A stretch of DNA of 64,000 nucleotides, taken from sequence record MG770228.1; one strand, 5' to 3'. Shown here piece after piece: positions 8,056-9,124 of the stretch. The position numbers were made by a program, and so were the translations under genes. Every line of letters begins with the position of its first letter. Position 1 is the first letter of the stretch. The notes beneath the pieces are model-generated. The model ran no database searches and had not been told where the DNA came from. It saw nothing but the letters and a program-made list of their open reading frames with translations. The stretch comes from Escherichia phage PMBT57.

Positions 8056-8166
8056 ATTTGAAAGAACTCTTATTTTGGTTACCGCAAAAGAAGTGAAAAA
8101 TGTTGTGGAAAACTACTTCCCAATTAGGTTCGAATCCTAAACCAGAGTAAGAGTTCTTTCGAATTG
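8054..8166 (+). ncRNA. structured RNA module B: 19-bp closing stem enclosing a tRNA-type T arm
   Basis: 8054-8072 pairs with 8148-8166 (18 Watson-Crick pairs plus one G-U). Inside are TGGTT/AACCA and TTAGG-TTCGAAT-CCTAA. No ORF. It ends 8 nt before tRNA-Pro. Confidence 0.5.
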
Positions 8167-8174
8167 AAGATTTA

Positions 8175-8251
8175 CAGGATATAGCTCAGTTTGGTAGAGC
8201 GTCTGCTTTGGGAGCAGAGTGTCGTAGGTTCGAATCCTGCTATCCTGACCA
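8175..8251 (+). tRNA. tRNA-Pro (TGG), CCA encoded
   Basis: Acceptor CAGGATA/TATCCTG, anticodon arm TCTGC-TTTGGGA-GCAGA, T arm GTAGG-TTCGAAT-CCTGC. Confidence 0.92.
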
Positions 8252-8253
8252 AA

Positions 8254-8337
8254 TTAGTGCTCTGGTATATTACTTTTAACCCCTAGGTTATGCCACAGTA
8301 ATACAACAGATTGGGTCATCTGAAACCAGAGCACTAA
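8254..8337 (+). ncRNA. structured RNA module C: 13-bp closing stem with two internal hairpins
   Basis: 8254-8266 (TTAGTGCTCTGGT) pairs perfectly with 8325-8337 (ACCAGAGCACTAA). Inner stems are TATTACT/AGTAATA and CAGAT/ATCTG. It starts 2 nt after tRNA-Pro. Confidence 0.45.
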
Positions 8338-8455
8338 CCTAATGTGTGGGATGTAACAGTTAAATCCAGTTGCCGGAAGTGCAATTCTAGATACGCTGCC
8401 AATGTGTGAACGGTAAGGCTGTACAGGACTCGGACTCCCATCCCACCTCCTTATT

Positions 8456-8552
8456 TGAACCAGGTATGAACGGCTTACTTAGTATTAACTGCATAGGGGT
8501 ATGTTAGGGATACTTAGGTGGTAAGCAGTTGGTAAGAATCCAACATGGTTCA
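8456..8552 (+). pseudogene. possible decayed or interrupted tRNA-like relic
   Basis: A 7-bp acceptor-like stem TGAACCA/TGGTTCA (8456-62 / 8546-52) has an adjacent 5-bp/7-nt-loop arm GTTGG-TAAGAAT-CCAAC (8528-44). There is no CCA, and I could not fold a convincing D or anticodon arm. Confidence 0.25.
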
Positions 8553-8698
8553 TTCCCTATTAGCAGTAACATAGTCCTGAGTACGTGTGCTCTAAAGACA
8601 ATATTGGTGAGACAGTCCAATAGCTGCTAAATTAAATTCGTCCATTCCTCTTGGATGTGTAGCGAGTGAAGGTAACACTTAAAAATCCATGACCCATA

Positions 8699-8730
8699 GA
8701 AGCCTCCAGGATTAACTGGAGGCTTTTTTA
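8699..8730 (+). terminator. intrinsic terminator closing the tRNA/ncRNA locus
   Basis: AGCCTCCAG (8701-09) pairs with CTGGAGGCT (8716-24), followed by T6. Confidence 0.8.
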
Positions 8731-8752
8731 TTTAATTAAATAAGGAAGCAAG

Positions 8753-9124
8753 ATGAACCGTATTACTGAAGAACATATTGATAGCATCATTGAAGGTGTT
8801 TACTACTTCAATATGGCTAAAGCTGTAGAGAATGAAGCAGTTCTGATTCCTGAAGACCATTTAAAAGCATTGAGTACAACTACTGTTTGTGCACTGGTTA
8901 TTTCTAATGGGTTCACTATTACTGGTAAATCTGCTTGTGTTGACCCTAATACCTTCAATGAGGAGTTAGGTAAGAAATATGCTTACGAACAGGCCATTGA
9001 TAAGGTATGGGAATTGGAAGGCTATCTGCTTAAGCAAAACCTGTATGAGAAAGCTCAGAGCCAGGAAATGCTAAAAGGATTCCTGCAAGATGACAACTGT
9101 GAAGGTGGGGGCTGTAAAATCTAA
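8753..9124 (+). CDS. hypothetical protein (N4 gp48 position)
   Basis: 123 aa with an AAGGAAG RBS. The segment TGKSACVDPNTFNEELGKKYAYEQAIDKVWELEGYLL resembles the conserved phage N4-gp49/Sf6-gp66-type family as I recall it; unverified. Confidence 0.75.
   Translation: MNRITEEHIDSIIEGVYYFNMAKAVENEAVLIPEDHLKALSTTTVCALVISNGFTITGKSACVDPNTFNEELGKKYAYEQAIDKVWELEGYLLKQNLYEKAQSQEMLKGFLQDDNCEGGGCKI

Follow-up and report, generated by a model that had tools for sequence, protein, structure and literature searches.

We analysed 64,000 nucleotides (nt) of Escherichia phage PMBT57 (sequence record MG770228.1; this whole stretch is hereafter the window), which are closely related to Escherichia phage N4. 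We find that positions 8338–8698, which lie between a cluster of transfer RNA (tRNA) genes and a transcription terminator and in which no open reading frame (ORF) exceeds 38 amino acids, probably consist of three or four tRNA-like small RNA genes, each folded and each conserved on its own, and not of dead tRNA genes. The initial annotation of this DNA had pointed out the absence of ORFs, and had preferred to read the stretch as a graveyard of decayed tRNA genes. The conservation and covariation of the stretch, the lack of any tRNA-model score, and the placement of the tRNAs of related phages at other positions all speak against that reading. Its alternative, novel structured RNAs transcribed together with the tRNAs and ended by the strong terminator, has the support that sequence analysis is able to give. 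Although N4 is a classic among model phages, its reference record has no annotation in this third of a kilobase, and other records mark only hypothetical ORFs there.

Covarying RNA modules behind the tRNA genes

Judged by the global fold and by comparative data, positions 8252–8698 divide into self-closing modules, separated by spacers of 6–9 nt (M0 to M4 in Table 1). By itself, folding energy is not decisive–the minimum free energy has a z-score of -2.7 for M2 (8456–8552), -0.5 for M1 (8346–8446) and -0.6 for M3 and M4 together (8553–8698)–and therefore the case rests on comparative data. M1, M2 and M3 recur in other phages independently of one another.

For M1, a first search with model R1 found 13 copies, 11 of which are distinct, and six more came from metagenome loci (the metagenome scan gave eight loci, two of which, L036 and L037, are chance 21-mer matches without a model match). 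Across the 11 distinct sequences and 30 base pairs, 99.1% of the cells are paired, and nine pairs have changed on both sides. None of 500 shuffles reaches these values, and slid partners pair at only 27–44%. The result for M3 is similar. Model R2 found 16 copies (12 distinct), in which 96.6% of the cells are paired over 20 base pairs and ten pairs have changed on both sides; again no shuffle out of 500 reaches the observed values, and slid partners pair at 25–45%. M2 comes in length subtypes of 97–100 nt in N4 and Pollock, 114–117 nt in Gamaleyavirus, and 129 nt in Kaypoctavirus and BaqKoxi, and MAFFT misaligned its 5' strand between subtypes, so we limited the count to helices with aligned columns. 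In these helices (the acceptor stem, the GGGG hairpin and the T-like arm, 16 pairs in all) 192 of 192 cells are paired and eight pairs have changed on both sides, while slid controls are 20–35% paired. The base of the long arm of M2 is also compensated across subtypes, reading GCUUAC/GUAAGC, ACUUAC/GUAAGU, CCUUC/GAAGG or AAGUCU/AGACUU. The GGGG tetraloop of M2 is invariant, and the stem beneath it varies from CAUA/UAUG to CCCU/AGGG.

Several of these helices contain G-U pairs. Pair 7/98 of the closing stem P1 of M1 is G-U in 4 of the 11 sequences, and the acceptor stem of M2 has U-G pairs in St11Ph5 and G7C. Alternation among G-C, A-U and G-U is valid only on the plus strand, because on the other strand a G-U pair becomes an A-C mismatch, which argues that the functional molecule is an RNA with the same sense as the tRNAs.

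Four stems listed in the initial annotation are present, and each is beyond chance because compensatory substitutions keep it in the homologs of other phages. They are the 8-bp stem that forms P1 of M1, the acceptor-like stem of M2, the inner stem GCTTAC/GTAAGC at the base of the long arm of M2, and TTAGCAG/CTGCTAA (8560–8566 / 8624–8630) in P1 of M3. The adjacent arm that it reported, GTTGG-TAAGAAT-CCAAC (8528–8544), is there too. Its direct repeats lie where it placed them (AATGTGTG at 8341 and 8401, TACTTAG at 8476 and 8511), but they are not conserved in homologs: one copy of AATGTGTG sits in a spacer that differs in every relative, and the second TACTTAG is missing in Pollock. On this comparison both repeats look like chance.

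The modules are better conserved than the genes around them. DNA identity to relatives is 90–94% for M1 and 72–82% for M3, compared to 59–62% for gp49 in Gamaleyavirus, KP8 and BaqKoxi; the gp48-like gene has about 51% identity to its Gamaleyavirus counterpart. M1 is 90–98% identical in many Gamaleyavirus and BaqKoxi-type genomes, and it also occurs, with 80–83% identity, in the tRNA clusters of Certrevirus (Vequintavirinae)–for example, in Certrevirus KaOmega it lies between tRNA-Glu and tRNA-Asp, inside a cluster of 20 tRNAs. It is absent from G7C and KP8. M3 was found in nearly all Enquatrovirinae examined. Retrieval of loci through the gp49 protein yielded only 5 loci. A blastn search with positions 8252–8735 found no match in 5,426 E. 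coli genomes, and exact-pattern scans for M1 and M3 found nothing in 185,579 bacterial and archaeal species genomes, so we regard M1 and M3 as phage genes.

The order of the modules also varies among phages. In Pollock (Humphriesvirinae), M0 stands right after the last tRNA and M2 comes next, with exactly M1 missing between them; Pollock also lacks M3. We saw no target-site duplications at this presence/absence junction of M1. The initial annotation had suggested asking whether intact tRNAs of relatives map onto the module positions. They do not; they fall between modules, as in PBM-2, where two tRNAs stand between M2 and M3 (L004, 1791–1950). KP8 and BaqKoxi have a further CCA-ended, tRNA-like module between M2 and M3. 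By their arrangement, then, the tRNAs and the modules are interchangeable cassettes of one array. On this evidence the stretch holds several strongly selected RNA genes whose ends resemble those of tRNAs, and one or more of these genes has been exchanged between unrelated phage families.

The evidence for a fourth gene is weaker. M4 has two compensatory pairs, both in one small hairpin, and its fold (z-score -0.3) is not distinctive. The hairpin is the same in G7C, and it reads GGAG-AAGGGAA-CUCC in BaqKoxi and KP8, and GGAG-AAUAGGAA-CUCC in PBM-2. We therefore name M4 as an RNA gene only tentatively. The strong terminator that the initial annotation had seen behind these elements is a G+C-rich hairpin followed by a T run (TTTTTTATTT after the stem). 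A terminator is annotated in the Jura and AL25 records, and every aligned relative has an equivalent that carries this T run.

The locus as a whole is a 1.3-kb gene-free stretch that extends from a gp48-like small ORF (7257–7421) to a homolog of gp49 (8753–9124), which stands just before the convergent virion RNA polymerase gene (3,506 amino acids). Over positions 7400–8800 the window is 99.6% identical to VEc25 and 98.6% identical to N4. ARAGORN and Rfam place four tRNAs on the plus strand: Asn at 7573, Ser at 7653, Thr at 7747 and Pro at 8175.

Table 1. Positions in the window of the RNA modules, their helices and the neighboring elements of the array. Paired strands are separated by a slash.
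Feature	Position	Strand	Description
Upstream array	7573–8251	+	tRNA-Asn, -Ser, -Thr; H1; X + tU; H2; tRNA-Pro
H1	7826–7916	+	91-nt near-perfect long hairpin; z-score -5.35
X + tU	7917–8055	+	Identity 85–97% across Gamaleyavirus, KP8 and BaqKoxi
H2	8056–8166	+	111 nt; ~25-bp stem around tRNA-like core, T arm UAGGUUCGAAUCCUA; z-score -8.06
M0	8254–8338	+	13-bp closing stem, three-way junction; z-score -4.95
M1	8346–8446	+	101-nt three-way-junction RNA (RNAalifold, 9 homologs)
M1 closing stem P1	8346–8353 / 8439–8446	+	8 bp, GTGGGATG/CATCCCAC, 100% complementary
M1 P2	8356–8361 / 8417–8422	+	
M1 CC/GG pairs	8366–8367 / 8412–8413	+	
M1 P3	8369–8373 / 8406–8411	+	
M1 inner helix	8375–8381 / 8394–8400	+	
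M1 T-like hairpin	8426–8428 / 8436–8438	+	7-nt loop CUCGGAC; stacked directly on 3' strand of P1
M2	8456–8552	+	97-nt tRNA-like RNA
M2 acceptor-like stem	8456–8462 / 8546–8552	+	7 bp, TGAACCA/TGGTTCA
M2 conserved single-stranded linker	8463–8472	+	
M2 long-arm base	8473–8478 / 8521–8526	+	
M2 apical hairpin	8491–8495 / 8500–8504	+	GGGG tetraloop, 8496–8499
M2 T-like arm	8528–8532 / 8540–8544	+	5 bp, 7-nt loop UAAGAAU
M2 bulged A	A8545	+	Separates acceptor-like stem from T-like arm
M3	8560–8630	+	71-nt three-way junction (RNAalifold)
M3 P1	8560–8567 / 8623–8630	+	
M3 middle hairpin	8579–8583 / 8588–8592	+	Enclosed by GUC/GAC, 8574–8576 / 8597–8599
M3 6-bp hairpin	8602–8607 / 8617–8622	+	9-nt loop UGAGACAGU; abuts 3' strand of P1
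M4	8631–8698	+	Weakly supported tail
M4 hairpin	8665–8679	+	AGUG-AAGGUAA-CACU, then conserved UUAAAAAUCCA
Intrinsic terminator of the array	8698–8733	+	Hairpin 8698–8727 (12-bp stem with 6 G-C pairs, 6-nt loop), then T run

Resemblance to tRNA ends and to known RNAs

M1, M2 and M3 are three-way junctions with a shared plan: a closing stem of 7–8 bp, a hairpin that abuts its 3' strand, and a long arm or second hairpin in the place of the D and anticodon arms of a tRNA. The terminal helix and the stacked hairpin together make 11–14 bp, compared to 12 bp in the acceptor/T minihelix of a tRNA, and the hairpin loop is 7 nt long except in M3, where it has 9 nt. The tRNA-like look of 8456–8552, remarked on in the initial annotation, is right as architecture, because M2 has a 7-bp acceptor-like helix with a stacked T-like arm (5 bp, 7-nt loop), both of them covarying. 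M1 has a covarying 8-bp helix with a flush arm of 3–4 bp and a 7-nt loop, and M3 a 6-bp arm with a 9-nt loop. None of the three has a D arm together with an anticodon arm with a 7-nt loop. Where these would be, M1 has a single long, bent arm (P2, P3 and the inner helix), M2 has a long arm that ends in the GGGG tetraloop and is preceded by an unpaired linker, and M3 has the short middle hairpin. The single strands AACAUAGUCCUGA and CUCUAAAGACAA of M3 are conserved.

No known RNA family accounts for the modules. As suggested in the initial annotation, we searched the stretch against Rfam; over 7400–8800, at E ≤ 10, only the four tRNAs and noise were returned, and positions 8252–8698 had no match to the tRNA clan. 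ARAGORN likewise called four tRNAs within 7573–8251, and neither a tRNA nor a transfer-messenger RNA (tmRNA) in 8252–8698, so that this interval contains no cloverleaf by either measure (the curated threshold of 29 bits or an ARAGORN call). We found no published description of the modules in the literature; the candidates in a catalogue of phage structured RNAs (PMC10690425) were left unchecked for overlap. The comparisons give good support to the view that M1–M3 represent new families within a kind of RNA that is known but still lacks an explanation.

The 3' ends of M1 and M2 in relatives also recall those of tRNAs. In all four true tRNAs, and in the tRNA-like element tU of the upstream array, a terminal CCA precedes AAUU or AUU. 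The 3' flank of M1 in relatives reads A-CCA-AAG, A-CCA-AAU or A-CC-UUAUUA (in some, CUCAA-A-CCA), and that of M2 reads CC-UAUUA or CCC-AUU (UCA-CC-UAUU); the modules that precede them end likewise. By analogy with the maturation of E. coli and T4 tRNA operons, we infer that such a spacer of CC followed by A/U-rich sequence is what would be expected if RNase E cuts were trimmed back to CC(A).

The nearest analogues of the N4 modules appear to be RNAC (species 1) and RNAD (species 2) of phage T4, which are of the same kind although, by sequence, of a different family. Like the N4 modules, they are part of a phage tRNA operon, where they directly follow the tRNAs and share their orientation. A canonical T arm, GGGUUCGAAUCCC, adjoins the 3' end of RNAC, and RNAD terminates in CACCA, with AAUU behind it. 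They are stable, non-decoding RNAs made from the tRNA cluster, and papers of 2010 and 2022 still described them as being without a known function (PMC3014915, PMC9697503). In blastn searches (word size 7) against the window, T4 rnaC gave only matches of the size of a T arm, all in other parts of the cluster and none of them within 8338–8698, and rnaD gave no match by blastn; conversely, model R1 has no match in the T4 locus (L022). The T4 RNAs are larger, at 139 and 119 nt compared to 71–101 nt for the N4 modules, and the N4-type array has many more such modules, shuffled between phages. N4 would thus join T4, whose RNAC and RNAD have been unexplained for 50 years, and would bring new handles on that problem: short, separable modules, natural presence/absence variants, and close relatives in the BASEL collection (Bas69) for panels of defence systems.

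Other known RNAs share parts of this design. In the tRNA-like domain of tmRNA, an acceptor stem and T arm are combined with a CCA end, and a long helix departs from the junction in place of the anticodon arm. By blastn and regular-expression searches we found no tmRNA tag reading frame in the window, and neither ARAGORN nor Rfam gave a tmRNA match. In contrast to the G3-U70 alanine pair of tmRNA, the third pair of P1 in M1 (columns 4/101) is G-C in 11 of 11 sequences. The mascRNA and menRNA are tRNA-shaped modules excised from a longer transcript by tRNA-processing enzymes (PMC11693755), which is also how the N4 modules are proposed to be made; they differ in being eukaryotic, in having a full cloverleaf with a short anticodon arm, and in their unrelated sequence. 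The tRNA-like structures (TLS) of plant RNA viruses, TLS-Val and TLS-His, are a case of viral mimicry of the acceptor/T half of tRNA that engages host tRNA enzymes (PMC7749636, PMC8127992), but they form the 3' termini of RNA genomes, and their acceptor stems are pseudoknotted, whereas the N4 modules are DNA-encoded, free-standing units in a tRNA operon. The element H2 (8056–8166) has the look of YrlA (RF02553), a tRNA-like domain on a long stem. In the Rfam search, YrlA scored 15–19.5 bits (gathering score 69), over or beside true tRNAs or the T arm of H2 and outside 8338–8698. E. coli K-12 is not known to have an Rsr/Ro partner.

Possible processing and function of the modules

We propose that this stretch makes up the distal half of a polycistronic operon of tRNAs and small RNAs in an N4-type phage, with M1, M2, M3 and probably M4 as its RNA genes. 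The array would be transcribed from upstream of tRNA-Asn through the terminator, and the host's tRNA-maturation enzymes would release each module as a stable RNA of ~70–100 nt. RNase P would cut at the 5' side of the acceptor-like stems and RNase E in the CC-UAUUA spacers, followed by 3' exonucleases and the CCA-adding enzyme. We think it somewhat more probable than otherwise that the modules are co-transcribed with the tRNAs and excised in this way.

The released RNA would then engage proteins that recognize the minihelix of acceptor stem and T arm, or the CCA at the 3' end. It is a speculative, and on present evidence rather doubtful, extension that the modules are mimics or decoys of the top half of a tRNA, which titrate away or redirect a factor of the host, or a defence toxin, with activity at the acceptor end; the toxSAS-type toxins (PMC11559606) are an example of a class that modifies tRNA 3' ends. 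With similarly low confidence, the modules may be a shuffled toolkit of 'half-tRNAs' in N4-type phages and some Vequintavirinae, excised by the host, ended by CCA, and acting in trans on the acceptor-end machinery or on stalled ribosomes. M1–M3 might then be three of its effectors, and the tmRNA-like tag RNA of relatives described below might be another member, which we put forward just as guardedly. If the modules do mimic tRNA ends, they would add an RNA-based layer to phage tRNAs as tools of counter-defence.

Several observations weigh against the view that the modules are tRNA-like RNA genes processed in this way. The window's own copies encode no CCA: M1 ends in CAC followed by CUCC-UUAUUU, and M2 in UCA followed by UUCCC-UAUUA. 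The T-like loops depart from the consensus of the tRNA T loop, since C56 is A in M2 and the loop of M3 has 9 nt. The z-scores of M1 and of M3 with M4 are unremarkable, and the support for M4 is weak. The homologs come from only three or four phage lineages, and two of the alignments, A7 and A8, had been fitted to their models, which somewhat inflates the covariation statistics. We found no expression or end-mapping data for N4 in the searchable literature, so transcription, processing and stability are inferred, and the decoy idea is speculation.

We weighed four other explanations, and only the first two retain an appreciable probability. The modules could be cis-acting elements–processing punctuation, 3' stabilizers of the tRNA transcript, or a leader of the gp49 operon–as might be thought from their constant position in Enquatrovirinae, always between the tRNAs and the terminator upstream of the gp49 homologs, and from the recurrent CC-UAUUA spacers, which resemble endonuclease sites. 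However, the terminator stands between the array and gp49, modules are gained and lost singly, and in Certrevirus M1 lies in another context, between two tRNAs and far from any gp49 homolog. The conservation of loops and junctions (GUAACAGUUAAAUCC, GGUAAGGCUGUAC, AACAUAGYCCUGA and the GGGG tetraloop) also exceeds what a stabilizer needs. We judge this explanation to be unlikely, though it deserves to be kept in mind.

A single composite RNA of ~350 nt, in which M1–M4 are domains that contact each other, is less likely again. M2 and M3 are neighbors in N4, and a conserved 12-nt apical motif of M2, AGGGGUAUGUUA (8495–8506), is complementary at 10 of its 12 positions to the junction of M3, UAACAUAGUCCU (8567–8578), which is also conserved. 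This complementarity could be a loop-junction contact or chance. The Y in the M3 sequence AACAUAGYCCUGA is C in phages that have the third subtype of M2. Against a composite RNA, each module closes itself by its own terminal helix, Pollock has M0 and M2 without M1 and M3, M1 is alone in Certrevirus, and M2 is split from M3 by two tRNAs in PBM-2 and by another module in KP8 and BaqKoxi.

We give very little credence to a role at the level of DNA or of protein, whether as inverted-repeat mobile elements, as recombination or replication signals, or as the small ORFs of the AlfredRasser record. The modules do behave as cassettes with terminal inverted repeats, and that GenBank record does annotate two hypothetical ORFs of 33–35 amino acids, which correspond to 8334–8441 (minus strand) and 8529–8630 (plus strand) of the window. 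But G-U pairs are tolerated on the plus strand only; read on the opposite strand, or in a DNA cruciform, each would turn into an A-C mismatch. We also saw no target-site duplications at the M1 junction. The 35-amino-acid minus-strand ORF, in M1, has in-frame stops in four homologs and lacks its start codon in some. We rejected the plus-strand ORF as a gene because it spans the M2/M3 boundary, which tRNAs or other modules interrupt in relatives.

Least tenable is the idea of decayed tRNA pseudogenes, whose stems would be leftover cloverleaves drifting neutrally: the acceptor-like and T-like arms of M1 and M2 and the site within a tRNA cluster do make an evolutionary origin from tRNAs plausible, but the modules are 72–94% identical where flanking genes are 51–62%, 8–10 compensatory pairs per module keep their helices, M1 is shared with Vequintavirinae at 80–83%, no tRNA model scores at E ≤ 10, and the intact tRNAs of relatives lie between modules instead of at their positions, so that in our judgement covariation and conservation refute neutral drift.

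The upstream half of the array and other observations

The upstream half of the array consists of the same kind of elements as the M1–M4 half. M0 starts 2 nt past the CCA of tRNA-Pro. Its counterpart in Pollock has 92% identity and keeps this register behind tRNA-Leu, and the differences there are compatible with G-U pairing on the plus strand. The H2 homolog of G7C is 81% identical, with five compensatory pairs. Three records (Jura, SPSP and AL25) list the element tU (7990–8055) as 'tRNA-Undet'. It consists of an acceptor stem of 8 bp, UA, a single long hairpin whose tetraloop is UGCA, a T arm of 5 bp (GGUUCGAGUCC) and a CCA that is encoded in the DNA, so there is no anticodon loop.

Among the loci that we fetched, H1 occurs in N4-type genomes only. 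At its place, relatives have a tmRNA-like segment and a similar long hairpin. The segment, which follows ...AAUAACAUAAAU, contains a candidate tag sequence, GCA AAC GAU GAU GUU GUU CUG AUG GCN GCN UAA, which translates as ANDDVVLMAA*. We saw it in L010 (~800–985), L008 (773–875 onward), L004 (811–913), L003 (742–845) and L006 (~2158), and in the further loci L016, L017, L024, L026–L030, L033 and L034. Variants of the tag are ANEEAYLMVA* and ANDDVVLMVA*, and two Ala codons differ synonymously between phages. The conserved block of the segment ends in a hairpin followed by (A/G)CCA. It scores 31–36 bits with the Rfam model tmRNA_permuted, for which the gathering score is 47, and ARAGORN calls no tmRNA in it. 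The segment is absent from the window and from G7C, and we found no literature on tmRNA in N4-like phages.

At the 3' edge of M1, the sequence CACCTCCTTA (8444–8453) equals the 3' end of E. coli 16S ribosomal RNA, known as the anti-Shine-Dalgarno sequence. The window has a single copy, one or more matches turn up in 17 of 100 shuffles, and the sequence is missing from the M1 flanks of relatives, so the match is probably chance.

The arrays of other phages contain further unusual elements. The tRNA cluster of the Certrevirus Klebsiella phage KaOmega holds other non-tRNA modules (L005, 1540–1698 and 1904–1994). One of them ends in GGGGCGCACCCAAUU and has weak colinear matches to T4 rnaD (E-value 0.008), and the module just before M1 has a sub-threshold match to tRNA-Sec (30 bits). 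In PBM-2 (L004, 1791–1866) and KP8 (L008, 369–443), ARAGORN reports 'tRNA-???' with two-base anticodons, where GenBank has tRNA-OTHER. These arrays seem to grade without a break from canonical tRNAs into odd tRNA-like ones. In Pollock (NC_027381; L006, 1171–1500), GenBank puts four tRNAs on the strand opposite to that found by ARAGORN and Rfam; the annotated strand appears to be wrong, and the orientations of modules and tRNAs are consistent with each other. Finally, Jura has an insertion of ~127 bp upstream of tRNA-Asn (L001, ~301–600) relative to positions 7400–7572 of the window, and its match consists of two pieces, spanning 1,526 bases of the record and 1,399 bases of the query.

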